Under the pieces are notes generated by a model. It was not told the origin of the DNA. It was given only the letters and a program-made list of their open reading frames with translations, and made no database searches. Below, in pieces: positions 2,561 through 26,002 of a DNA stretch of 32,000 nt. The stretch comes from an uncultured Chloroflexia bacterium. Lineage in GTDB: Bacteria; Chloroflexota; Ktedonobacteria; Ktedonobacterales; JADMIN01. A program made the position numbers and the translations under genes. The stretch spans positions 211,033 to 243,032 of the forward strand of contig CAVRAI010000014.1 of NCBI GenBank assembly GCA_963718915.1, given 5' to 3'. Position 1 is the stretch's first letter. The number at the start of each line of letters is the position of its first letter.

Positions 2561-2668
2561 TGATGGGATAGCTCTCCCGAACTGACGGGTTTTTGCGTTG
2601 AAACAGGATGATACCGGGAGGGGAGAAGATACCTGGTCATCTTGCAACGCGCCGTGAAAGGGCCTCCG

Positions 2669-3754
2669 ATGACGCACTTCTTCTTGTCATCATGGAAGCG
2701 ACCCAGGACAGGACTCCTCATTCTTTGTCTCTCGTTGATGCTCGCCCTGGCTGCCTGTGGGAGCAGCACGACACCAGGGACGGGCGATCTCACCGCTGGC
2801 GCGAATCCAACTGCTACCACCACCAGCGGAGGCAGCGGCTCGCCGACCGCGACAACCAGCACAGGTGGCGGCTCGCCCACCGCGACGCCATCGGGCAGCG
2901 GCACGCCGGATGCGGTGGCTCCGCCGTTCTTCTTTACCGTCCGCGCGACCGTCAGCAATAGTGTCGGTGACTACACCCTCATCGACAACGTCGTCACGAA
3001 TGGCGACCCTGGCCTCGTCCTCTTCGTCACGGCGAACTACAACCCGAATGGCGCTGGCGGGGTCTATGACAACCATCCGCTGGGGGTCTTTTACATCAGC
3101 GGAACCACCAACAAGTGGGCGATCTATCATGATGACAAGACACCCTACATCATCAATGCCAGCTACAACGTCTGGGCACGTGAGACCAGCCAGCCCGGCA
3201 CGTTCATCTGGCGCGCCAGCGCGGCCAACAGCGCGGGGGACTACACCATCATCGACAATCCCGCCACGAACGGCAACCCCAACGTCGTCATCCTGGTGAC
3301 CCACAACTGGAATCCCGGCGGAGTCGCTGGCATCTACGAGAATCACCGGCTGGGCGTCTACTATATCGGGGGAACCACCAACAAGTGGGCGATCTACCAT
3401 CAGGACACGACACCCTACACGCTCAACGCCAATTACAACGTCTACGCGACGGTCGCCGACGGCGCGACGCGGTTCGTGGCGCACGCCTGCTCCGCGCCGT
3501 GTACCTACGACTACATCACATTCAGTAGCTCGGCGTCGAACAACAAGCCTGGCGCCATCGTCTTTGCCACGGCGAACTGGAATCCCGGCGGCACGGGCGG
3601 CGTCTATGATGACCACAACCTGGGCGTCTTCTATTCCAGCGGCTACCTGCGCTGGGCGGTCTATCACCAGGATCAGGCGGCCTACATCGCCAACTCCTCC
3701 TTCAATGTGGTGATCCCGCAGACCGGGCGAGTGAGGGCAGACCTCACCCCCTAG
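2669..3754 (+). CDS. Secreted lipoprotein of unknown function with three tandem ~90-aa repeat modules
   Basis: The ORF opens at TTG 2642, but ATG 2669 gives MTHFFLSSWKRPRTGLLILCLSLMLALAACGSS, a signal peptide plus lipobox LAAC. A T/S/G/P linker follows. The modules lie at about 2927-3199, 3200-3466 and 3467-3751 and share NWNPGG.GG.Y.NH.LGV.Y..KWAIYH.D..PY..NA.YNV. Confidence 0.8.
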   Translation: MTHFFLSSWKRPRTGLLILCLSLMLALAACGSSTTPGTGDLTAGANPTATTTSGGSGSPTATTSTGGGSPTATPSGSGTPDAVAPPFFFTVRATVSNSVGDYTLIDNVVTNGDPGLVLFVTANYNPNGAGGVYDNHPLGVFYISGTTNKWAIYHDDKTPYIINASYNVWARETSQPGTFIWRASAANSAGDYTIIDNPATNGNPNVVILVTHNWNPGGVAGIYENHRLGVYYIGGTTNKWAIYHQDTTPYTLNANYNVYATVADGATRFVAHACSAPCTYDYITFSSSASNNKPGAIVFATANWNPGGTGGVYDDHNLGVFYSSGYLRWAVYHQDQAAYIANSSFNVVIPQTGRVRADLTP

Positions 3755-4008: not shown

Positions 4009-4752
4009 ATGAGCGAGACGGATTCCTACAAAATCTTCATCTCCTATCGCCGCGACGACACTCAGGCGACCGTTGACCACATCTATGACTGGCTGGTGCG
4101 CGCGTTTGCCCGCGAGCTAGGCGCCAAAGCCATCTTCAAAGACGTGGACGCGATTCCAGTGGGCTATGGCTTTCCTGGCGTGGTTGCCAGCAAGATGCGC
4201 CAGTGTCGCGTGGCGCTGATTGTGATTGGCCCCTCCTGGACAACGCTGCTCTCGCATGATGATCCCTACACGGGGCAGCCGCGTCTCAACGACCCGGCCG
4301 ATAACGTGCGTGTCGAGGTGGAGCAGGCGCTGGTGTTGGCCCCGATGAACGAAGCGGGGGAGCCTGCCAGTCAGCTCCTCCTGATTCCGGTGCTGGTGCA
4401 GGGCGCACGCATGCCCCGCGCGGAACAGTTGCCCGAGAGTCTTCGTCCACTGACCCTGCGCAACGGCACGCCGATTCGTCCTGACCCCGACTTCGCGCAC
4501 GATACCTGGCGGCTTATCACGCGGATGGCGGACTGGATGGGCGTGACCGCTGACGACCCGCGTGGTGGACATGTCACGCCGCCCGTCGTCACGCCTCCGC
4601 CATCGTCTCCAACGCCCGCCGATCCGATAGCCGACCTGCTGGCGCGCTTCCTGCCACAGCTGCGCGCCGCCTTCGACGCGCAAGACTGGCCGCAGGTGGC
4701 GCGGCTGGCCGCCTTCATCCAGCGCAGCGTCCCTGCCGAGCGGCTGCCCTAA
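4009..4752 (+). CDS. TIR-domain protein (intact ORF; probably the surviving N-terminal module of a longer TIR-TPR gene)
   Basis: YKIFISYRRDD..FKDVD..CRVALIVIGPSW..VRVEVEQAL is a TIR_2-like signature. A Pro-rich linker follows. The ORF ends at TAA 4750-4752, but homologous-looking text continues in another frame. Confidence 0.75.
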   Translation: MSETDSYKIFISYRRDDTQATVDHIYDWLVRAFARELGAKAIFKDVDAIPVGYGFPGVVASKMRQCRVALIVIGPSWTTLLSHDDPYTGQPRLNDPADNVRVEVEQALVLAPMNEAGEPASQLLLIPVLVQGARMPRAEQLPESLRPLTLRNGTPIRPDPDFAHDTWRLITRMADWMGVTADDPRGGHVTPPVVTPPPSSPTPADPIADLLARFLPQLRAAFDAQDWPQVARLAAFIQRSVPAERLP

Positions 4753-5423: not shown

Positions 5424-6160
5424 GTGGCGTCAAGTTCATCCTACCCGCCGGTCTGCGCCGTGCCCGCGGGCGAGTTCCTCATGGGCAGCGATCCCAGACG
5501 CGGATAAGGATGCGCAGGCCAGCGAGCAGCCGCAGCATCGCGTCAATCTGGCCGCCTTCTCGATCGGCCGCTTCCCGGTGACGGTGGCCGAGTACGCCTG
5601 CTTCGTCGAGGCGACGCAGCAGCGCCAGCCAAATGATTGGCCGAACCAGATGCAGAAAGCTCGATCATCCCGTCGTCTATGTCTCCTGGGATGACGCCGT
5701 CGCCTATGCCGCCTGGCTGGCGCGGACGACCGGGCAGCCCTGGCGCTTGCCGACCGAGGCGGAATGGGAGAAAGCGGCCCGGTGGGACCAGCGCGACGGG
5801 CGTCGCGCGTCTCTATCCCTGGGGTGATACGTTCGACCAGTCGCGTGCCAATACCAGCGAAAGCGGCAAGGGCGGCACAACCGCCATCGGCAGCTATCCG
5901 AGCGGGGCCAGCCCATACGGCGCGGAGGAGATGGCGGGCAACGTCTGGGAGTGGACGCACAGCCTCTACAAACCGTATCCATACACTGTGAGTGATGGTC
6001 GTGAAATGGAGAATTCCACTGAGAATCGAGTGCTGCGTGGCGGTTCGTGGGGCGACGACCAGCAGTCGCGCGCGCGGCCTTCGCACGGCCTCAGGCCGGT
6101 CATCCTCGACATTGGTATCGTCTCGTTGTCGGCCTCGGCTGGTTCTAGTAGCCATTAACT
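5424..6160 (+). pseudogene. FGE-sulfatase (SUMF1/EgtB/PvdO-type) domain gene or module, multiply frameshifted
   Basis: Ordered hallmark blocks lie successively in frames 0, 1, 2, 0: VPAGEFLMGSDP; [25 protein letters not shown]; [32 protein letters not shown]; YPWGD..GNVWEWT..RVLRGGSW. The C-terminal GFR block is scrambled. Confidence 0.7.
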
Positions 6161-6310: not shown

Positions 6311-6415
6311 ATGGATGATGTCCCTGAAACACCATCACTCTATGATCGTCTCTGCTCCTTCGAGAATCTCCTGCCGTATCGCGCGCCGTTCGCGGCGATA
6401 GGTGCTGGCGGTTAA
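6311..6415 (+). pseudogene. 5' stub (34 codons) of a retron/group-II-like reverse transcriptase gene
   Basis: MDDVPETPSLYDRLCSFENLLPYRAPF.. resembles the conserved N-terminus (..LWERLISFENLLLAAKQAQRGKR..) that I recall for stand-alone bacterial RVT_1 proteins. SD GAGAGGA lies upstream. The reading is truncated where the repeat at 6413 begins. Confidence 0.4.
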
Positions 6416-6479
6416 AACCGCGCCTGAAGGGCCTCGCTGCGCTCTGCCACGAAACCCGCCTGCGCGGATTCCCAGAGCG
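6413..6479 (+). repeat. REP-like element, TAAAACCGCGCCTGAAGGGCCTCGC...AAACCCGCCTGCGCGG family, copy 1
   Basis: About 85% identical to 7831-7902. It contains an N7-CTGC-N7' hairpin (AACCCGC-ctgc-GCGGatt). Confidence 0.8.
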
Positions 6480-6650: not shown

Positions 6651-7094
6651 CTACTGGTCGAGCGTGGCGTTGACCGTGATCTCGACGTTGTTGCGCAGCG
6701 CGTTCGAGACGGGGCAGCCCTGCTCCGCTGTGGCCGCCGCAGCCGCGAATCCCGCCTGATCGAGACCAGGTACCTTGCCGTGGACATCGAGACGCACGGC
6801 GGTGATCTTCATCTTGCCGTCCACGCGATCCAGCGCGCAGGTCGCCGTCACGTTTAGTTGCTCCGGTGGCGTGCCCGCGCCGTTGAGCGTATTCGAGAAG
6901 GCCATCGCATAGCATGAGGCATGCGCCGCCGCGATCAACTCTTCGGGGCTTGTCCGCCCATTGGGGTCTTCGGTGCGTGACGCCCAGGTGACGGGCAGTG
7001 TGCCGAAGGCCCCGCTTCCCGGAGTCACCGTCCCGCTCCCCTGGATCAAGTTTCCCTGCCAGACCACTTCCGCCCTGCGTTCCGCGACTGCCAT
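6651..7094 (-). CDS. osmC: OsmC/Ohr-family peroxiredoxin
   Basis: MAVAERRAEVVWQGNL..TSPEELIAAAHASCYAMAF..EQGCPVSNAL carries both conserved Cys contexts. I take ATG 7092-7094 as the start because it has a weak upstream SD (AAAGGAAAA); the ORF-track start at 7205 adds non-homologous residues. Confidence 0.85.
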   Translation of the reverse strand: MAVAERRAEVVWQGNLIQGSGTVTPGSGAFGTLPVTWASRTEDPNGRTSPEELIAAAHASCYAMAFSNTLNGAGTPPEQLNVTATCALDRVDGKMKITAVRLDVHGKVPGLDQAGFAAAAATAEQGCPVSNALRNNVEITVNATLDQ

Positions 7095-7128: not shown

Positions 7129-7476
7129 CTAGGCGTGTGCTGTATAGAGTGTATCCGTTCGCGCCGCCAGAATGAAATCGTTGCGGTGCAGCCCGCCGAT
7201 GGCATGCGTCCACCAGGAGACGGCGACTCGCCCCCACTCCGTCAGCAACGCCGGATGATGGCCTTCCTGCTCGGCCAGCGCGCCGACACGATTGGTAAAG
7301 TCCAGGGCGCTGGCAAAGTCGGGGAAGGTAAAGACGCGCATCAGCCGGGGAATGCCGCCCTGCTCGACAATGCGCCATGTGGGGATCTGCTTCAGGTATT
7401 CCTGGCTATCCTCCTCGGATACCGTTGGTTCGCCAGCCCGACAGGCCACACACGTCATCTGCGCCAGTGGCTCCAT
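7129..7476 (-). CDS. phhB: Pterin-4-alpha-carbinolamine dehydratase (PCD/DCoH)
   Basis: 115-aa protein, [63 protein letters not shown], with the HHP motif. A strong SD (AAGGAGG) precedes ATG 7474-7476. The 133-aa upstream extension of the ORF runs over repeats. Confidence 0.85.
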
Positions 7477-7691
7477 CTTGCGCCTCCTTCTTCCCGTGCA
7501 ACCCTCCAGGGCAACGTAGCTTCCAGTGCAGAACGTAGCACAGAGCGGGCCGGAAAGGCGATGGGGGCGCGTGGCGGTATGGGGAGAGGTTCTGGCGGAA
7601 GATGCCTGGGGATGCAGGCCGAAGCGTGTTGTCGGGTAATCCATGAAATGGGTCTGGCAGAGGGAGCGCGGGCGGTTACTGTCGTTATAGG

Positions 7692-7830: not shown

Positions 7831-7997
7831 TAAACCGCGCCTGAAGGGCCTCGCCTGCTGCGCACGCTCCGCCACAAAACCCGCCTGCGCGGGTTGCAGA
7901 GGCTCGCTCGCCAGTCAGGTACGCCGTTGGGGGCAGGATCTGGGGAGTCCGCGTCGGCGGACTTCGTGGCCGCAGGCCCTCAAGGTGCGGTTTTAAC
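7831..7997. repeat. Inverted pair of the TAAACCGCGCCTGAAGGGCC family flanking about 70 nt
   Basis: 7831-7902 is copy 2 of the 6413 family. 7971-7997 (gcaggccctcaaggtgcggttttaacc) is a degenerate reverse-complement copy of its left end. Confidence 0.7.
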
Positions 7998-8061
7998 CGC
8001 CCGCGTACCCGCGCGGTGTCCCTGGTATTCTGTAAAACCACATCAGTCGCCAGCGTCCGTG

Positions 8062-8358
8062 GAAAATACGAGAGGGGCGGTGATCTACCGCCCCAACAAG
8101 TATTTATGTGGAGAAACAGCCTCCACCAACATCGAAGAGAAACAGCCTCTTCGTGTTGAGCGCCGCCAAGCAGAAAACAGCCTGCTCATCCGGCGATGCA
8201 CGGCAGAAAACAGCCTGCCCGCATTTCCACCGACACCGAAAAACAGCTCGTTGCCAATGGGAGTGATCTGACTCCGACTAACCCTCTTCATCAGATCGGT
8301 GATGGGGATAGTATACCCGCGCATTTGCCGGAAGTCCAATATATGTTTGTGAGGTTAC
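8062..8358 (-). ncRNA. Candidate novel ~300-nt ncRNA carrying five tandem hairpins with a conserved GCUGUUU(U) loop
   Basis: Bounded by the promoter at 8365-8394 and a terminator hairpin GGGGCGG-uagauca-CCGCCCC (8074-8094) followed by UCUCGUAUUUUCC. The hairpins lie at 8108-8126, 8134-8154, 8169-8186, 8202-8219 and 8234-8253. The only ORF (8085-8339) starts at TTG and reads the repeat in three different frames. Confidence 0.5.
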
Positions 8359-8364
8359 TCATAA

Positions 8365-8394
8365 ATTATAGTTAATGACTGTGGTGTATAGCAA
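8365..8394 (-). promoter_or_regulatory. Sigma-70-type promoter reading leftward into the hairpin array
   Basis: The minus strand reads TTGCTA (8394-8389), an 18-nt spacer, then a perfect TATAAT (8370-8365), inside the most AT-rich patch of the region. Confidence 0.45.
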
Positions 8395-8407
8395 GCGTTC
8401 TGCTATG

Positions 8408-8436
8408 TTGTCAATGCGCTGCTGCTGTGATATGCT
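8408..8436 (+). promoter_or_regulatory. Possible sigma-70-type promoter for the histidine kinase gene
   Basis: TTGTCA-N17-TATGCT, about 165 nt upstream of ATG 8603. Confidence 0.3.
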
Positions 8437-8602: not shown

Positions 8603-11272
8603 ATGCCATCTCGATCATCCCAGCCACCCAAAACATCCACCGGATCACCACCAGACGATGCGCCCGACGCCTCGGGGCGCGAGCACGCCCGTCCGGACGA
8701 CGCCCTGAGCGACATCGATATCGCGCGCCTCTATCAGGACGCCCTTGCGGGTGCGCTCAAACTCGTCGGCGCCGACGGTGGCGAGCTGGCAATGCTCGAT
8801 CCCCAGCGCCGGGTGATGGCCGTCCGCGCGCGTCTGCGGGGTGAGCCGGGCGCGTCTGGCAGTGGCTCGGCATTCGGCGCGCCCGCGCGCTCATCGCAGC
8901 CCCTCGCGTATAGCAGCGTCCGCTACGATCCATCACGCGCGCCCGCGCCACAGCCCGCCGATGACGATCCTGAGTTGGGCGAGCAGCCGACTGTCCTGCT
9001 TGCGGCGATCCCCACCGCGCGTGTCTACCGTCAGAGTGAGGGGCTGGTAGGCGCCGTCTGGCAGCGCGCCGATGTCATTGTGTTACGCGGCGAGGAATTT
9101 CGCGTGCTCGCCCACGGCACTGGCGCTCCCGGCGCCGAGGCGCACTGGCATGTCGGGGTGCCAATCTACCGCCCCGGCGCGCTTGATGTCATTCCGCCAA
9201 TTGGGAACAACGGCGACATCATCGGGGTGCTTGCGGTCTATTCGGATGGGTCGCGTGGGTTCAGCGCGCGTGATGTCGAGATGCTCCGTCTGCATGCCGA
9301 CCGGGTAAGCCGTCACCTGCGCATCGCCGAGCTGGCGCGCCAGGGCCAGAGCCAGAGCGAGTTGCTTGAGGTGCTCTGGAGCGACACGCAGGACCTGCCC
9401 GCGCTGTACCAGCGGATTCGCGATCTCGTGCGTCATCTGATCGATGCGCCGTCATTTGGGCTGATTCTCTACAATGCCCAGACGAGGGAGGCGACGCTCG
9501 AGGTCGCCGAGCGTGATGGAACGCCAATTGCCCCGCCTGCCCGCCGCGCCTCGACGCTGCCCGCCTGGTGGAATGCGGTGGGCGCCGGTCAGGTAGTGCG
9601 TAGCATCAGCGCAGAGGAACGCGCCGCCCATCCCGAATTCAGCCAGTTGGGCTGGGGCGACGATATGCCGGTAGTCTCACTGCTGGCGGCGCCGCTCATC
9701 AGTGGCCAGAAGTTCCTGGGAGCGCTGGTGGTCGCCAGCCCACAGGCGGAGGCATATAGCCCTGAGCAGGCGCAACTGTTCGAGTCCATCGCGCGCGCGG
9801 GCGCGGTCGTGCTGGAGAACACGCGGCTGGCGTTTGAGACGCGCGACAACGCCGCCCGTAATCAGGCGAAGGCGTACCAGATGGCCGCCCTCAACAATGC
9901 GGCCCTGACCATCAATGCGTCCCTCGACCTCGGTACGACTGTGCAGGCGCTGGCCGATCAGGCGTCACATCTGGCGACCGCCGAAATCTGCTCGGTCTTC
10001 CTCCTCAATGAGGAGCGTACTCACCTGGTGATGAGCGCCACCAGTCTTCCTCGCGATCCGCAGGCGCCACCGCCGATACCCACCCAGGCGCCACTGACTT
10101 GGCATGATGTGGGTCAGGTCCTCAAGAGCGGGCAGTTTAGCGTCATGGATCACCTTGACGAGGACTGGGAGGACGCCACCATTATCGGGGGTCTGCTGAG
10201 AGAATATCAGGTCTATAGCGGACTCCTTGTGCCGATTGCGCATCGCGCCGCCGACAGCAGGCAACCGGGAACCTCAGGCACGTTTAGCAGCGAAGGGCCA
10301 CAGGAGCGTGATGAGCTGCTTGGCGCGCTCTTTGTCTTTACGCCTGGTCAGCGCCACCACTTCTGGCCGACGGAAATCGGGCTGTTACAGGGGTTGGCCA
10401 GCCAGGCGGGCGCCGCCATCAGCAATGCCCGGCTCTACCAGAATCTCAAAGACGCGAAGGAAGGGCTGGAAGAGGTGGATAGGCTCAAGAATGACTTCAT
10501 CCTGACCATCTCGCATGAGTTTCGCACCCCGCTCACGACGATCAATGGCTACATCAGCCTGATTACGCGCCACGGCGAGAAGCTGGAGCCGGAGAAGTTG
10601 AACCAGTTTGGCGGCGAGATTCAGCTGGCCACCGATAAGCTGGCGGGGATGATTGGCATGCTGGCGGATGCGAGTATGCTGGAGGAGCGCGGGCTGGATG
10701 TGCATATCGAGCCGGTGAGCCTGCGGGCGATGGCGGAGCGGGCAGTGGCGGGGCTGACCGAAGACCTCAAGGGGCGCATCGCGATCGATATTCCAGCGGA
10801 TATGTGGGTGCTGGCGGATGCCGAGCGCCTGCCGATGGTCATCTCGAACCTGCTGACGAACGCGGGCAAGTATGCGCCTGGCTCTCCCTATCGCCTGGCC
10901 GTGCGGCGCGAGCAGCGCGAGCGGTTGCAGCAGAAGGGCAGGCTGGTTGGCAGGAAGGAAGCGGATGGCAAAGACGCCCGCAACAACGAGACGGTTACGC
11001 GTACCATCCGCGCCCACGAACAGTGGCTGGTGGCCCATGTGATAGATTCTGGCCCGGGAGTTGCCAGCGAGGAGCTGGATCGTATCTTCGCCCGGTTTGT
11101 ACGCACCCCCCAGTCGCTCACCACTCCCGTGCGCGGGACAGGCCTGGGGTTGTGGATTTGCCGCGAGTATATCGAGGCGATGGGCGGTAATATCTGGGTC
11201 GAGAGTTCCATTGGCAGCGGCTCAGACTTCCAGTTCTGCCTACCAGAGACCGCGCCTCCACAGACGCCCTGA
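8603..11272 (+). CDS. Multi-GAF sensor histidine kinase
   Basis: 889 aa. Three GAF-like blocks are followed by the H-box ISHEFRTPLTTINGY, the N-box NLLTNAGKYAP, and G-boxes DSGPGV / GTGLGLWICREYIEAMGG. Confidence 0.9.
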   Translation: MPSRSSQPPKTSTGSPPDDAPDASGREHARPDDALSDIDIARLYQDALAGALKLVGADGGELAMLDPQRRVMAVRARLRGEPGASGSGSAFGAPARSSQPLAYSSVRYDPSRAPAPQPADDDPELGEQPTVLLAAIPTARVYRQSEGLVGAVWQRADVIVLRGEEFRVLAHGTGAPGAEAHWHVGVPIYRPGALDVIPPIGNNGDIIGVLAVYSDGSRGFSARDVEMLRLHADRVSRHLRIAELARQGQSQSELLEVLWSDTQDLPALYQRIRDLVRHLIDAPSFGLILYNAQTREATLEVAERDGTPIAPPARRASTLPAWWNAVGAGQVVRSISAEERAAHPEFSQLGWGDDMPVVSLLAAPLISGQKFLGALVVASPQAEAYSPEQAQLFESIARAGAVVLENTRLAFETRDNAARNQAKAYQMAALNNAALTINASLDLGTTVQALADQASHLATAEICSVFLLNEERTHLVMSATSLPRDPQAPPPIPTQAPLTWHDVGQVLKSGQFSVMDHLDEDWEDATIIGGLLREYQVYSGLLVPIAHRAADSRQPGTSGTFSSEGPQERDELLGALFVFTPGQRHHFWPTEIGLLQGLASQAGAAISNARLYQNLKDAKEGLEEVDRLKNDFILTISHEFRTPLTTINGYISLITRHGEKLEPEKLNQFGGEIQLATDKLAGMIGMLADASMLEERGLDVHIEPVSLRAMAERAVAGLTEDLKGRIAIDIPADMWVLADAERLPMVISNLLTNAGKYAPGSPYRLAVRREQRERLQQKGRLVGRKEADGKDARNNETVTRTIRAHEQWLVAHVIDSGPGVASEELDRIFARFVRTPQSLTTPVRGTGLGLWICREYIEAMGGNIWVESSIGSGSDFQFCLPETAPPQTP

Positions 11273-11407: not shown

Positions 11408-11776
11408 ATGCCACACGCGCCAACAGTATTGATCGTGGATGACGACCCAGCGATCCGCAAGTTGCTGGTCGAGGTGCTATCGCTGGAGGGCTATCCGACG
11501 GAAACAGCAGTCAATGGGCGCGAGGCGCTGGACCTGATAGCACGCGGTGGCGCGCGGGTGATCCTGCTCGACTTGATGATGCCTGTACTGGATGGCCGTG
11601 GTGTGATGACGGAGCTACAGGCCAATCCAGCGGAGCGTGGCCGCCACAAGGTGATTCTGGTGTCAGCGATCGGCTTTCTGGAAGGCGCGCGCGACCTGGA
11701 GGCGGATGGCGTGCTGGCCAAACCGTTTACGGTTGAGCAACTGTTGAATGTGCTGGAAACGGCCACCACGCCCTAA
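11408..11776 (+). CDS. Single-domain response regulator (CheY-like receiver)
   Basis: VLIVDDDPAIRKLL..LLDLMMPVLDG..VSA..KPF. SD AAGAGGA lies before ATG 11408. Confidence 0.9.
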   Translation: MPHAPTVLIVDDDPAIRKLLVEVLSLEGYPTETAVNGREALDLIARGGARVILLDLMMPVLDGRGVMTELQANPAERGRHKVILVSAIGFLEGARDLEADGVLAKPFTVEQLLNVLETATTP

Positions 11777-12058: not shown

Positions 12059-13006
12059 TTAATCCGCGTCGACGATCATTGGATTGCGGATAATCGGCGC
12101 TTTGCCAGTCCGCGAGCTGATCGATGGCGCACCGCCGCCACCGCCGCCACCGCCGAAGCCGCCCGCGCGTGGCGCCTGGGGCTGTTCGCCTGATTCGACC
12201 ATAATCATGCCCTGGCGTAGCATATCGAGGTCGCGCAGGAAGCATGCGACCGCGCTGGCCGCCGAGCCTTTCGACTGGGAATTATCGTAGCGGCGCGCGG
12301 TATTATCGGGGGCGTTTGGGCCTGCTGCGCTGAAGGAATCGGTATAGATCTGTTCCCAGCCGTTCCAGCGTCCGCGCAGTGGTTTCCAGCCGAGCTGGCT
12401 GTCGCTGACCGCGCGCCACTTCTCCTCGGTGAAGGCCATCCAGTCTTCGATCAGCCGCGAGTAGGTGGCGAGCATGTCGCGCAATTCCTCGGAGCGCTCA
12501 TCCAGCCGCATGCTTGGCACACCGCCGCGCCCGTAGTCATCATACTCACCATAATCGTCCTGCCCATAGCCGGGGCCGAGCGCTCCCTGGCCGTAGCCGG
12601 GGGCATATCCCCCCGCCAGACCCATGCCACCATAGGCAAGCTGGCCCTCGTGCAGCGAGCCATCCTCCGTGGTGAACATATCTGGGCGCAGGCCGCCGAT
12701 GATGATTTCCTCGGTGCCCATCGCATCCATCAGCCGCCATGCCAGCCGGGGATGGCGCATGGCCCAGAGTCCCTTGCGCATAAGGTAGACGAACGAGAAG
12801 GCGAAATTCACGAGCAGCCAGATGGCGCCTTTGACCGCGATCCAGTTCAGCAGGCCAAACAGCGCCCATTCAGTCGGCGTGGCGTTTGAGCTGCCTTTCT
12901 CGATCACCGTCAGGATGATGGCGACGAGCAAGCTTGGGTCACGAATGGGATTAATCAGACCAAAAAGACGGGAGCCAAATCCTCGTTTCCGCTCGCCGTT
13001 CGCCAT
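12059..13006 (-). CDS. Hypothetical membrane protein with a Gly/Tyr-rich low-complexity segment and a C-terminal poly-Gly tract
   Basis: 315-aa ORF. SD GAGGGAG precedes ATG 13004-13006. Two hydrophobic helices lie near the N-terminus. It also contains YGGMGLAGGYAPGYGQGALGPGYGQDDYGEYDDYGRGG and GGFGGGGGGGGA. I recognise no family. Confidence 0.6.
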   Translation of the reverse strand: MANGERKRGFGSRLFGLINPIRDPSLLVAIILTVIEKGSSNATPTEWALFGLLNWIAVKGAIWLLVNFAFSFVYLMRKGLWAMRHPRLAWRLMDAMGTEEIIIGGLRPDMFTTEDGSLHEGQLAYGGMGLAGGYAPGYGQGALGPGYGQDDYGEYDDYGRGGVPSMRLDERSEELRDMLATYSRLIEDWMAFTEEKWRAVSDSQLGWKPLRGRWNGWEQIYTDSFSAAGPNAPDNTARRYDNSQSKGSAASAVACFLRDLDMLRQGMIMVESGEQPQAPRAGGFGGGGGGGGAPSISSRTGKAPIIRNPMIVDAD

Positions 13007-16294: not shown

Positions 16295-17821
16295 ATGCCA
16301 GACAGCTCGCCCGGTTCTGAATCTACATCCGCCGCCCACCGCCGTTCCCGGTTGTGGGCGGCTGTCGTTGTGGCGGTTGTGCTGACGATTATCGGCTCGG
16401 CGGCCATCGCGCATGCGCTGGTGGAGCGAGCGCGCCAGGCCGAGGCGGTTGTCGCCGCGCCGTCCCTGCCAACGCTCCCGGTAGTAGCGGTTGCCCACCC
16501 GGAGGCGGGCGCGCTCCTGACGGCGTACGATTCTGCGACCGGCAACCTCGCGACACTTGCCAGCCAGCGCGAGCCGTTCTGCCCGCCCGTCGGCGCGTGC
16601 CAGCCCGTTCGCCCGGATGCCTTCGTCCTGCTGAATGGCGCGAGTGGCCAGCAGATAGCACGGACGCCCCTGACCGGCGACGCCTCCGCCGCAGCCGACA
16701 CGCTGTTGCTGCTGGATGATCCGGTACGCCAGCGGGCATACGCCATTGCGCCCAGTACGATAACGAGCTTCTCGACTGTGAATGGCGCGTTAGTTGGCCA
16801 TCTGACACTGGCGCACATTGCCCCCTGGACTGGCGGCGCGCTCGATGCCGCGACTGGCCATCTTTATCTTGTCGGCGGTGGGCAGGTGGTGACGCTTGAC
16901 GTGGCGACCGGGAACGCGCTGGCCGCGGCAAGACTCTCCATGACGAGCGACATACCTGTTCCCGATGGGCCGGTCTTCGATATAGCGCGGCGACTGCTCT
17001 ACATCGCGATACGCCCCAAACTTGCCAGCGATGCGCCCCACCTGCTGGCGCTGGATGCCGCGACGCTCCGGCAGGTCAGCGCGCTGGCGTTGCCGGTTGG
17101 CGCGCGCCTGGGGCCGATTGACGCGGCGACCGGAGCGCTCGATATCTTTGGTGGCGATGGCCGTGGCTGGCAGCTTCACGCGGGACTGGCGACTGCCCCG
17201 ACGCTCACGCGGGCGCCCATGCTCGACGGCGCGCTGGCGGTGGGGGCGAATCCAGCCCTGCGGCGCCTCTATGTCGCTGGTTTCACGCAGACGCTCTCGC
17301 TGGATACGCGCGATGGGCGAATGCTCGCGGGGCTGCCCCTGGTAGCGCGTTGGCCCATGTATGAGCCGCTGCCGGTGGATCAGGCGCATGGGCTGTTCTA
17401 CCTGCCATCCGATCACGGCGCGATAGTCATCGTCCGCGATGGCGCGGGCAACACACGCATAACTGCGCCCTCGGCGGCGATTCTGGCGCGGGCAGCGCTG
17501 GCGGAATTGCTGCCAGATACGAATCAGGATCCGCCGTTCGTCGCGCCCGATACATTCCCGCTCGGCGCAGGCACGCCCGCGCATCCCGAGACGCGCGCGC
17601 TGGACTTCTGGATCCACTTTGCCGACCGCGGCTGGCAGGGGCCGTATCCTGGAACCGCCAGCGTCGCCGTCACGACGAATGGCGCGCAGCCCGGCGGCTA
17701 CATCGTCACGTTTACGATGACCTGGCGGCAACTTTTCGAGCGGACGCATACATGGGTCTGTGCGGTTGCGCCAGGCGGCACGGTGGCGCTACGTTCCGAG
17801 ACAGGCGATACTGTGCCGTAG
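16295..17821 (+). CDS. Membrane-anchored hypothetical protein, probably a beta-propeller (YVTN/YncE-like repeats)
   Basis: N-terminal TM helix LWAAVVVAVVLTIIGSAAIAHALV. Recurrent LY(L/V)..G...V..LD..TG motifs. The start lies 8 nt after the preceding stop codon. Confidence 0.6.
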   Translation: MPDSSPGSESTSAAHRRSRLWAAVVVAVVLTIIGSAAIAHALVERARQAEAVVAAPSLPTLPVVAVAHPEAGALLTAYDSATGNLATLASQREPFCPPVGACQPVRPDAFVLLNGASGQQIARTPLTGDASAAADTLLLLDDPVRQRAYAIAPSTITSFSTVNGALVGHLTLAHIAPWTGGALDAATGHLYLVGGGQVVTLDVATGNALAAARLSMTSDIPVPDGPVFDIARRLLYIAIRPKLASDAPHLLALDAATLRQVSALALPVGARLGPIDAATGALDIFGGDGRGWQLHAGLATAPTLTRAPMLDGALAVGANPALRRLYVAGFTQTLSLDTRDGRMLAGLPLVARWPMYEPLPVDQAHGLFYLPSDHGAIVIVRDGAGNTRITAPSAAILARAALAELLPDTNQDPPFVAPDTFPLGAGTPAHPETRALDFWIHFADRGWQGPYPGTASVAVTTNGAQPGGYIVTFTMTWRQLFERTHTWVCAVAPGGTVALRSETGDTVP

Positions 17822-24111: not shown

Positions 24112-24204
24112 AGATTTGTCCGAAACACGTCGGACACATCCCGTATAGTTCCGGGGATATGGCCCGGATGTATCTACCAGGCGACCGTAAATCGCCCGAC
24201 TACG

Positions 24205-24457
24205 AGATGAAGTGCATCTAGGGTTCCGTGCCTGCCAGCTCCATGCGCAGCATCGGCGCAGTGTCGCGTCGTCCATCATCTGGATTTATCATAGCGGCGC
24301 GTTTTGGCGAGCGGCGGCGGTCTGGTCCGAGCGATGCAGGCATGTCGGTTCCGCGTGAGATGATAAAGCGGCACTGTGCATGTTACACCACGGGGAAGAA
24401 AAGCCCGGATGGTAGGTTCACTCGCGCAGAAGGACCTACCACCGGGCTAATGTTTTT
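24205..24457 (+). promoter_or_regulatory. ykkC-family riboswitch-like leader (guanidine-I / subtype-2 class) with an overlapping intrinsic terminator
   Basis: Three motifs occur in canonical order: CUAGGGUUCCG (24218-24228), GGUCCGAGCG (24324-24333) and ACACCACGGGGAAGAAAAGCCCGG (24385-24408). The terminator pairs GCCCGG..GGUAGGU with ACCUACC.CCGGGC (24403-24447), followed by UAAUGUUUUU. Its 5' arm reuses the aptamer 3' strand. Confidence 0.6.
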
Positions 24458-24520
24458 CCGGTGTGCAGGTCTGGTGATTTGGGACCGTCGCCTGGTGTCC
24501 TTTTCAGGAGGATTCTCTCC

Positions 24521-26002
24521 ATGGCCTCTGAGGTCGCGCCAGAGTCAACTGCAACAGCTTCGTCTTCGTCGCGCGCCGGTGGTATCTTTGCCACGATCAT
24601 GAATCCCGGGCACCGTGGCAGCAGTCATCGTATTGAGTTCATCGCGGGCCTGACGACCTTCGTCACGATGGCCTACATCATCTTCGTCAACGCCAGCATC
24701 ATGGAGGCGGCGGGGCTGAATTTCGACGCCCTCGTCATCGGCACCATCTTCTGCGCCGTCGTCCCCACGCTCTTCATGGGGATTTGGGCCGATCTGCCGT
24801 GGGCGTTGGCCCCTGGCCTCGGCTATAACGCCCTCTTCGCGTTTACCGTCGTCGGTCAGCGCCACTTCCCGGTGGGCGCGGCGCTCGCGCTCGTCTTCCT
24901 GGATGGCCTCGCCTTCCTGCTGATCGTCGTCGGGCCGTGGCGCGAATCTATCATCAAAGGGATTCCGCTGCCGATCAAGCTGGCCGCTGGCGCTGGCATT
25001 GGCCTGTTCATTGCCTTCATTGGCCTTGCCAATGCGGGCATCATTAAGTTCAGCGCCTTCGCCGACATCAAAGCGGGGCAGACGGTGCCCTTCGGCGACG
25101 CCTTTGGCCTGCCGGGACTGAGCGTGCTCAACGACCCCGTCGTCATCGTGGCCTTCGTCGGGCTGCTGCTGACGGGGCTGCTGATGGCGTGGCGGGTGCG
25201 TGGCGCGCTGCTGATCGGCATCCTGGTGACCACGGCGATTTGCTGGGTCGCATCAATGGTCAACACGTCACTGCGAGGGCAGCTGCTGCCCAACGCTCCG
25301 AAGAATCCTACTGGCGTCAGCAGCTTCATCGCGCTGCCCAACCTGGGCCAGTTCTGGAGCCAGCGCGGCCTGATCGATTTCGGCTCGCTCTTTAGTGGCA
25401 ACCTGGCTACCGGCGCGATCATCCTCTTCTTCGTGACATTCCTCGTCACGGATATGATGGATTCGCTCGGCACCTTCAGCGGCCTGGCCACCAAGCTTGG
25501 CATCCTCGACAAGGAAGGCAACTTCCCGCATTCGGGGCGCGCGCTGATTGTGGACGCCGCCGCTGGCATGTTTGGCCCAATCACCGGCAACGCTACCATC
25601 GCGACATTCATCGAGAGCGCGGCGGGCGAGAGCGAGGGCGGCAAGACTGGCCTCACCTCCGTCTGGGTCGCGATCTTCTTCCTGCTCACGCTCTTCCTGG
25701 TGCCGTTCATTGGGCTGGTGCCGCCGGTGGCGACGGCTCCGGCGCTGATCGTCGTCGGCTTCCTGATGATCGAGCCAATTGTCAAGATCGGCTTCGATAG
25801 CATCACCGATGGCCTGCCCGCTTTCCTGGCGCTGCTGTTCATGCCGCTGACCTACTCCATCGCGGACGGCATGTTCGTCGGCATCGTCAGCTATGTCGTG
25901 CTCAAGACGCTCACCGGCAAGATTCGCGAGGTCAGCTGGATCATGTGGGTCTTTGCCGCGTTGCTCATACTCGCCAAGATACTCGACGCGGCGAGTTTGT
26001 AG
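24521..26002 (+). CDS. NCS2-family (AzgA/PbuG-like) adenine/guanine/hypoxanthine permease
   Basis: IEFIAGLTTFVTMAYIIFVNASIM.. is a typical AzgA N-terminus, with about 13 TM helices. SD AGGAGGA at 24505-24511. I take ATG 24521 as the start rather than the upstream ORF start at 24461. Confidence 0.88.
   Translation: MASEVAPESTATASSSSRAGGIFATIMNPGHRGSSHRIEFIAGLTTFVTMAYIIFVNASIMEAAGLNFDALVIGTIFCAVVPTLFMGIWADLPWALAPGLGYNALFAFTVVGQRHFPVGAALALVFLDGLAFLLIVVGPWRESIIKGIPLPIKLAAGAGIGLFIAFIGLANAGIIKFSAFADIKAGQTVPFGDAFGLPGLSVLNDPVVIVAFVGLLLTGLLMAWRVRGALLIGILVTTAICWVASMVNTSLRGQLLPNAPKNPTGVSSFIALPNLGQFWSQRGLIDFGSLFSGNLATGAIILFFVTFLVTDMMDSLGTFSGLATKLGILDKEGNFPHSGRALIVDAAAGMFGPITGNATIATFIESAAGESEGGKTGLTSVWVAIFFLLTLFLVPFIGLVPPVATAPALIVVGFLMIEPIVKIGFDSITDGLPAFLALLFMPLTYSIADGMFVGIVSYVVLKTLTGKIREVSWIMWVFAALLILAKILDAASL

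Follow-up and report, generated by a model that had tools for sequence, protein, structure and literature searches.

An undescribed small RNA family of Ktedonobacterales with repeated hairpin tops: a candidate protein-titrating RNA

The window analyzed here is a 32,000-nucleotide (nt) stretch of contig CAVRAI010000014.1 from an uncultured Ktedonobacterales bacterium (Chloroflexota) of soil. The DnaG encoded in it shares 82-95% identity with proteins assigned to Ktedonobacterales at NCBI. Its minus strand carries an array of hairpins with a shared loop, which we interpret as a small RNA (sRNA) gene. The predicted transcript (8062..8303, minus strand) is about 240 nt long and ends in UCUCGUAUUUUC after the terminator stem. 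A GAF histidine kinase gene (8603..11272, plus strand) is transcribed divergently from the RNA and served as the synteny anchor; a receiver-only response regulator (11408-11776) follows it. The next gene 3' of the RNA encodes a pterin-4a-carbinolamine dehydratase (7129..7476, minus strand), and OsmC (6651-7094) comes after the dehydratase.

Four canonical hairpins make up the array, all on the minus strand. Hairpin 4 (8196..8224) reads GGCAG-GCUGUUUU-CUGCC and continues into a bulged outer stem. Hairpin 3 (8161..8195) reads UGAGCAG-GCUGUUUU-CUGCUUG and has the outer helix CGCC/GGCG. Hairpin 2 (8127..8158) reads CGAAGAG-GCUGUUU-CUCUUCG, and hairpin 1 (8108..8126) reads GUGGAG-GCUGUUU-CUCCAC. 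A previous inspection of the letters without database searches (the sequence-only reading) had described five hairpins. Those placed at 8108-8126, 8169-8186, 8202-8219 and 8234-8253 are found exactly there. The second one also exists, but one base away from the position given to it, at 8133-8153, where the first loop base is 8140. Successive loops lie 26, 34, 33 and 33 nt apart, so that the first two values of the earlier series (27, 33, 33, 33) were wrong. The count of five needs a similar correction: four units are canonical, but the fifth (8234-8253) holds no conserved copy of the repeat, and most relatives read GCGGUUAUU there. It lies within a long irregular hairpin, H5 (8227..8260, minus strand), with the outer stem CAUUGGC/GUCGGUG and the inner stem CGA/UCG. 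The H5 loop contains GCUGUUUUU in one sub-clade only and GCGGUUAUU elsewhere.

The 8-mer AAACAGCC occurs four times in the 32 kb, always within the array, where 0.54 copies are expected. Four hairpins enclose GCUGU3-4 in a perfect stem of 5 bp or more, as compared with an expectation of about 0.002 per window. This chance level was obtained from 1000 Markov simulations of the window, 998 of which gave no such hairpin and two of which gave one. A relaxed hairpin pattern applied to about 860 kb of unrelated DNA yielded seven isolated matches and no cluster. The excess over expectation, together with the isolated nature of the hits in unrelated DNA, indicates that the array is real and non-random.

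Orthologues of the kinase form a graded series from 90% down to 40% identity. Their contigs revealed a conserved order of OsmC, pterin-4a-carbinolamine dehydratase, a long intergenic region, the kinase and the receiver-only response regulator. Every locus with the order OsmC–dehydratase–intergenic region–kinase has the hairpin array in the intergenic region. Altogether, 13 distinct syntenic loci, drawn from soil metagenomes, keep the array. Twelve of the 13 sequences belong to one near clade, with kinase identities of 70-90% in the six that were retrieved via the kinase; L127 is the sole distant member (kinase 49% identical). An exact sequence look-up of the window kinase returned no match. 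We built a covariance model from the array and the terminator. The near members scored 151-176 bits and L127 scored 93.7 bits, while nothing else exceeded 26 bits. Of these weaker matches, the two highest were spurious: the one in L057 (25 bits) was a 27-nt tandem repeat, and the one in L121 was an opposite-strand match overlapping the terminator. The structural conservation in relatives on which the sequence-only reading had made its claim depend was found, with the array present and its pairing kept in the 13 loci.

The kinase orthologues L128, L138, L139 and L140 (43-47% identity) gave no RNA by regular expression or by the covariance model. A peptidase gene lies upstream of the kinase in L128, L138 and L139, those with the flank present. 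The Ktedonobacteraceae dehydratase loci L141-L150 have another context and no RNA, and no similar RNA was found in viral contigs, phage records or plasmid records. Scanning a genome collection with three copies of AAACAGCC returned at least 120 unrelated tandem-repeat or CRISPR-like loci, with no hairpins among the matches listed. The family is confined to a sub-lineage of Ktedonobacterales. One Ktedonobacterales-type locus with the RNA (L126; GCA_050258275.1, JBLMYM010000065.1) lies in a metagenome-assembled genome (MAG) labelled as a Nitrososphaerota archaeon at NCBI, which is probably a binning or labelling error.

The loop consensus was drawn from 52 hairpins. The hairpin top reads AG/GCUG-N-U-Y-U(U)/CU, where the slashes bound the loop. 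Loop positions 1-4 and 6 are invariant, as is also seen in unbiased alignments. Position 5 is U in 29 hairpins, A in 17 and C in 6, and position 7 is U in 49 and C in 3; loops are 7, 8 or 9 nt long. A single A-U to G·U change is the only departure from the two otherwise fixed loop-closing pairs (A-U and G-C). The loop had been called invariant, which is correct within the window, where the copies are identical, but across relatives position 5 and the length vary. Loops as variable as the spacers had been named as one outcome that would undermine the proposal. The core loop letters are instead far more conserved than the spacers, and the identity is 0.25 in linker columns versus 0.81 in stems.

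RNAalifold recovered ten helices from a structure-blind MAFFT alignment. For the 64 pairs counted, 96.9% of the cells are paired. Fifteen of these pairs have changed on both sides, as compared with 4.9 ± 1.5 in column shuffles (0 of 500) and with 1-4 in slid controls, in which the partner was moved by 1-3 columns. Compensatory change in excess of the controls is the behavior of a structured RNA. The four stems within each molecule are unrelated to one another. Hairpin 4 shows four compensatory pairs, with orthologous stems that include GGACAG/CUGUCC and, in L127, GAGGCAG/CUGCCUC. Hairpin 3 shows three, and its L127 counterpart is AUAG/CUAU with an outer GCGAG/GUCGC. The orthologous stem of hairpin 2 in L127 is CGGGUAG/CUACCCG. 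Hairpin 1 appears in relatives as GUGGAG/CUCCGC, CGUGGAG/CUCCGCG or AUGUGGAG/CUCCGCAU, and in L127 as GUGGGCAG/CUG(A)UCCAC. The outer helix of H5 exhibits G·U-to-G-C changes and two compensatory pairs. In L127 the stems of hairpins 1-3 are replaced and hairpin 4 retains the same stem in extended form, with pairing and register kept. Hairpins 4 and 3 are spaced by exactly 33 nt in each of the 13 sequences; the linker between hairpins 2 and 1 accepts a 17-nt insertion in L121. These results bear out the earlier claim of covarying stems under selection for pairing, with loops under selection for sequence.

The folding strand was assessed through the wobble pairs. With the loop-closing pairs set aside, the helices contain 75 G·U cells and 9 A·C cells, which indicates that the minus strand is the one that folds. 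The U·G wobble of GUGGAG/CUCCGC, for example, would read as mismatched C·A on the opposite strand. The promoter and the terminator lie on the same strand, in agreement with the minus-strand RNA proposed before. An open reading frame (ORF) of 84 codons (8085-8339, minus strand) spans the array. In relatives its frame meets stops after 20-25 codons (L123, L129, L131, L132, L135) or shifts; its ATG is ACG in L136, and the region of its 5' part is missing in L127. A coding reading was rejected on account of this broken frame, and the non-coding nature first suspected from the window was upheld.

The RNA promoter (8310..8348, minus strand) comprises the A/T-rich AAACATATA, the –35 hexamer TTGGAC (8339-8334), an 18-nt variable spacer and the –10 hexamer TATACT (8315-8310). 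None of the 13 loci departs from either hexamer or from ATATATTGGACTTC. The upstream alignment reads invariant A.AT.TATTGGACTTC, 18-nt variable spacer, invariant TATACT, variable discriminator and conserved CATCA, and the consensus scan returned TGGACT-17-TATACT. Invariant hexamers separated by a variable spacer and followed by a variable discriminator are the classical conservation pattern of a promoter. The conserved CATCA, 7 nt after TATACT, suggests that transcription starts near A8303; with an end at about 8062, the transcript would be about 240 nt long. The promoter originally put forward, TTGCTA-N18-TATAAT (8394-8365), is not conserved in relatives. With the promoter moved to 8339-8310, the unit loses about 60 nt on its 5' side relative to the roughly 300 nt first estimated. 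A scan of metagenomes for the promoter string found eight loci, six of them with the RNA. In L133 (1995-2029) and L137 (2858-2892), the exact string ATATATTGGACTTC-N15-TATACT stands 5' of a protein-coding gene of a low-GC metagenomic organism, without the RNA. These matches could be due to chance (about two chance hits are expected by our estimate) or to a common promoter type.

A 20-bp palindrome (8359..8378), CCATAAA-N6-TTTATGG, here TCATAAATTATAGTTAATGA, lies between the divergent kinase and RNA promoters and is centered about 65 bp upstream of where transcription is inferred to begin. Its half-sites are conserved and its N6 is variable in 13 of 13 loci, including L127. The TATAAT of the abandoned promoter falls within this variable N6. 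The palindrome is likely to be a transcription-factor operator or upstream activating site of the RNA promoter, and it may possibly serve the divergent kinase promoter as well. The window contains no second good copy; the best other match has three mismatches (5979-5998). A block conserved in the near clade (8385-8436; GATGACAACATAGCAG..GCTTGCT), to which the TTGCTA of the abandoned promoter belongs, overlaps the plus-strand TTGTCA-17-TATGCT (8408-8436), which is probably the kinase promoter.

At the 5' end of the transcript, hairpin H0 (8265..8297, minus strand) has the stem GAUCUGA/UCAGAUC and the loop UGAAGAGGGUUAGUCGGAG. The stem is 100% paired in the 12 near-clade sequences. The 19-nt loop UGAAGAGGGUUWGUCGGAG (W = U/A) is unchanged in 11 of these 12, L136 having C for the first U, and no stem of the near clade is conserved as strongly. 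In L127, H0 is replaced at the 5' end by an unrelated hairpin. Tandem G·A/A·G pairs are possible beside the H0 stem, and H0 holds a CUGAUGA string; a likeness to hammerhead or C/D-box elements was dropped, as Rfam gave no support. At the 3' end, an intrinsic-terminator-like hairpin (8062..8094, minus strand) consists of GGGGCGG-UAGAUCA-CCGCCCC (8094-8074), followed by the conserved CUCUCGUAUUUUC. It had been recognized at this position before. Its helix is 99.1% paired and covaries in relatives, with three compensatory pairs (e.g., GGAGCGG/CCGCUCC in L123 and GGGGCAGG/CCUGCCCC in L127). The whole transcript folds with a minimum free energy of -103.6 kcal/mol (z = -5.0). A conserved promoter, a covarying terminator and no conserved frame point to a putative stand-alone sRNA gene. 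We are highly confident that the array belongs to a genuine structured non-coding RNA gene.

No Rfam 15 family (4227 models) matched the array region at the gathering threshold, in line with the earlier expectation of an undescribed RNA; the only hit of cmscan in the window at this threshold was a purine riboswitch elsewhere. With E values up to 10, the best scores in the array region were 16.7 bits for 23S-methyl (threshold 50, E = 9.8) and 15.1 bits for Atu_C4 (threshold 80), and L127 gave nothing above 18.7 bits. The full-text literature searched contained no description of sRNAs of Ktedonobacteria or Chloroflexi, or of hairpin motifs of this kind. The RNA is a well-delimited sRNA family, undescribed according to Rfam 15 and the literature searched, and it has a sponge-like design with a new motif.

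The closest parallel in layout is the Csr/Rsm system. In the rsmX/Y/Z genes, a palindromic site precedes the promoter, an unpaired motif recurs along the RNA and a terminator closes the unit, and several copies of the GGA motif are needed to sequester RsmA (PMC2375449). Like CsrB/CsrC and RsmX/RsmY/RsmZ, the RNA described here is a stand-alone sRNA gene that has an upstream palindrome and a terminator, and whose several hairpins expose one motif while stems and linkers vary. The sequence-only reading had noted this resemblance of architecture together with the different loop motif; the four conserved loops read GCUGNUYU. Unlike in Csr/Rsm, the motif is AG/GCUGNUYU/CU and not (A)NGGA, the neighboring two-component system lacks a DNA-binding regulator, and the host belongs to Chloroflexota. 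GGA at 8221-8223 and 8189-8191 is lost in several relatives. The only conserved GGA is that of the H0 loop, which is present in the near clade only and absent in L127. The Csr/Rsm models of Rfam matched neither the window nor L127, at the gathering threshold or at E values up to 10. Membership in the Csr/Rsm family was rejected for the lack of a repeated GGA and of a model match.

Other known designs differ as well. In orphan Rfam motifs such as TwoAYGGAY, pairs of hairpins without known function have a conserved terminal-loop sequence; here both the loop sequence and the copy number differ, and cmscan gave no hit even at E = 10. ToxI-type repeats and CRISPR arrays share with the present array short structured units with a period of about 30-36 nt. 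However, those units are near-identical throughout and stand beside toxin or cas genes, whereas here the repeat is limited to the hairpin top (linker identity 0.25), the neighbors are metabolic and signalling genes, and the genes downstream encode the dehydratase and OsmC. Loop mimicry of ribosomal RNA, transfer RNA, boxA or boxB was considered; no convincing match emerged, and none is claimed.

With these results in hand, we propose the following mechanism. A sigma-70-type promoter, TTGGAC-N18-TATACT, would drive a minus-strand sRNA of about 240 nt, and a regulator at the palindrome about 65 bp upstream would switch its synthesis. Transcription would end at the GC-rich hairpin and its U-tract. 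The RNA is expected to adopt a beads-on-a-string fold, with a clade-specific 5' domain and four hairpins whose outer stems are free and whose tops are fixed. The four tops would be repeated sites for a single RNA-binding protein, possibly dimeric or oligomeric, that recognizes both sequence and shape. Once induced, the RNA would titrate, recruit or scaffold this partner, following the logic of CsrB/RsmZ with a different motif. We put action through repeated protein binding, whether titration or recruitment, at a little under even odds. The fuller proposal is that the RNA, its synthesis switched through the palindrome, serves as the titrating arm of a post-transcriptional system not described so far in Chloroflexota and sequesters a protein that differs in kind or in specificity from those of Csr/Rsm, Hfq/Crc and ProQ. 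To this we assign a probability of about 0.35.

The loops might alternatively act by base pairing. Actinobacterial 6C, staphylococcal RsaE and RNAIII, and the alphaproteobacterial CcsR 'cuckoo' RNA have 2-4 hairpins with identical C-rich loops that pair with G-rich ribosome-binding sites. Like them, the present RNA is one small transcript with several hairpins carrying a common loop. It would then be a multi-seed sRNA whose four G/U-rich loops, and perhaps the H0 loop, pair with ARANCAGC sites in messenger RNAs or in another RNA, perhaps as kissing loops. Repeated, exposed and conserved loops are a hallmark of such sRNAs, a terminator at the end is typical of trans-acting sRNAs, and the near invariance of the 19-nt H0 loop in the 12 near-clade members is what a seed would show. 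Unlike the C-rich, anti-Shine-Dalgarno loops of those RNAs, however, the loops here are G/U-rich with a single C, have a free position and vary in length, and the RNA has no Rfam match. Several observations favor a protein reader over base pairing. The invariant top includes two closing base pairs, which would be unavailable to a target. Only four contiguous loop bases (GCUG) are fixed, and the drift of position 5 and of loop length between close relatives would break a duplex of 7-8 nt. The four sites sit on flexible linkers. When the loops were matched to the 5' regions of the genes for the kinase, the dehydratase, OsmC and the response regulator, complementarity stayed at background (RNAduplex, z from -0.6 to +1.8), and the loop complement AAACAGCC has no further copy in the window. 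The H0 loop, as mentioned, is missing in L127. We hold the base-pairing alternative to be unlikely.

A number of points weigh against the protein-titration proposal. The neighborhood points to no binding protein, the adjacent response regulator being receiver-only. No single copy of the hairpin was found in messenger RNA leaders within the roughly 170 kb of family loci, which is a small sample. Folding energy does not discriminate the strands, as both fold well (z = -3.8 and -6.1). The effective sequence number of the alignment is only 1.22; a few lineages carry the covariation, and the distant L127 supplies much of it. All of the sequences come from metagenomes or MAGs, and the RNA is known here from sequence alone. 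Finally, in every locus with enough sequence, the dehydratase–OsmC pair directly follows the RNA and is encoded by the same strand.

This last arrangement is what a cis-acting leader of the dehydratase–OsmC operon would show. In such a leader, a factor bound to the hairpins would decide between a stop at the terminator and read-through (attenuation or processive antitermination). The absence of the RNA where the kinase (L128, L138, L139) or the dehydratase (L141-L150) has another context is also in its favor. However, the gap from the terminator to the ATG of the dehydratase ranges from 136 to 585 nt across loci and has accepted insertions. It is longest in the window (585 nt), because two inverted copies of a dispersed GC-rich element fill it (7832-7895, plus strand; 7940-8004, minus strand). 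This element resembles repetitive extragenic palindromes (REP) or miniature inverted-repeat transposable elements (MITE), has the cores GGCGGTTAAAACCGC and CCTGAAGGGCCT, and occurs also at 6404-6475 (plus strand). The same REP/MITE-like element stands downstream of the RNA terminator in L130, L134 and L136; weak CRISPR-DR28 matches fall on it. Further downstream, an extended –10-like element (TGnTACnnT; TCTGTGCTACGTT) at about 7532-7545 (minus strand), 60-110 nt upstream of the dehydratase start, is conserved in both clades. It takes the forms TCTTTGCTACGCT and TCTNTGCTACGNT, and TGTGATACCGT in L127. Its conservation makes it probable that the dehydratase–OsmC operon has its own promoter. Moreover, no alternative pairing competes with the terminator, and hairpin 1 ends about 14 nt before it. 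Due to the variable gap, the insertions, the promoter-like element and the lack of a competing structure, we treat the RNA as its own transcription unit and keep a cis-acting leader as an unlikely but serious alternative.

The RNA may also have another structured role, as a precursor cut into four hairpin RNAs, as a decoy for a ribonuclease or toxin, or as a scaffold. The regular 33-nt spacing of hairpins 4 and 3 throughout the family and the beads-on-a-string fold would suit processing or scaffolding. On the other hand, no nuclease, toxin or Cas-like gene is linked to the locus, and the units differ outside the loop, unlike ToxI or CRISPR repeats; we give such roles only a slight chance. That the array is no RNA at all, but duplex-DNA transcription-factor sites, a decaying tandem duplication or a small protein gene, is hardly credible: the direct repeat GCAGAAAACAGCCTGC does occur twice, 33 bp apart, and the 84-codon ORF does span the array, but the compensatory changes and the 75:9 excess of G·U over A·C would be meaningless for duplex DNA or neutral decay, the loops are conserved and the linkers are not, and the ORF is frameshifted, truncated or without a start in relatives.

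Ktedonobacteria are mycelial, spore-forming soil Chloroflexota with large genomes, and their sRNA biology appears unexplored. The locus offers a clean, bounded candidate: its promoter is defined, an operator is probable, the tops of the four hairpins are identical and a terminator closes the unit. Should these hairpins be sites for a protein, they would represent a new RNA–protein recognition code and a second sponge design outside Csr/Rsm. The 12-nt motif could then serve as bait for finding the protein and as a search pattern for messenger RNA targets or a regulon. If they are not protein sites, the RNA would still be a new RNA-database family with a ready covariance model.

Two ORFs in the window, one of 315 aa (12059-13006, minus strand) and one of 508 aa (16295-17821, plus strand), have no Pfam match. 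The 315-aa ORF adjoins the response regulator in most of the loci that reach that far (not in L127 and L139). It is not linked to the RNA, because it is also syntenic in two loci without the RNA. A TIR-domain protein with a borderline Pfam score (4009-4752, plus strand) and a DUF7452 protein (2642-3754, plus strand) are both unrelated to the finding. The purine riboswitch aptamer mentioned above (RF00167, 77 bits; 24121-24222, plus strand) lies directly 5' of a xanthine/uracil permease ORF (24461-26002), which is an ordinary arrangement.

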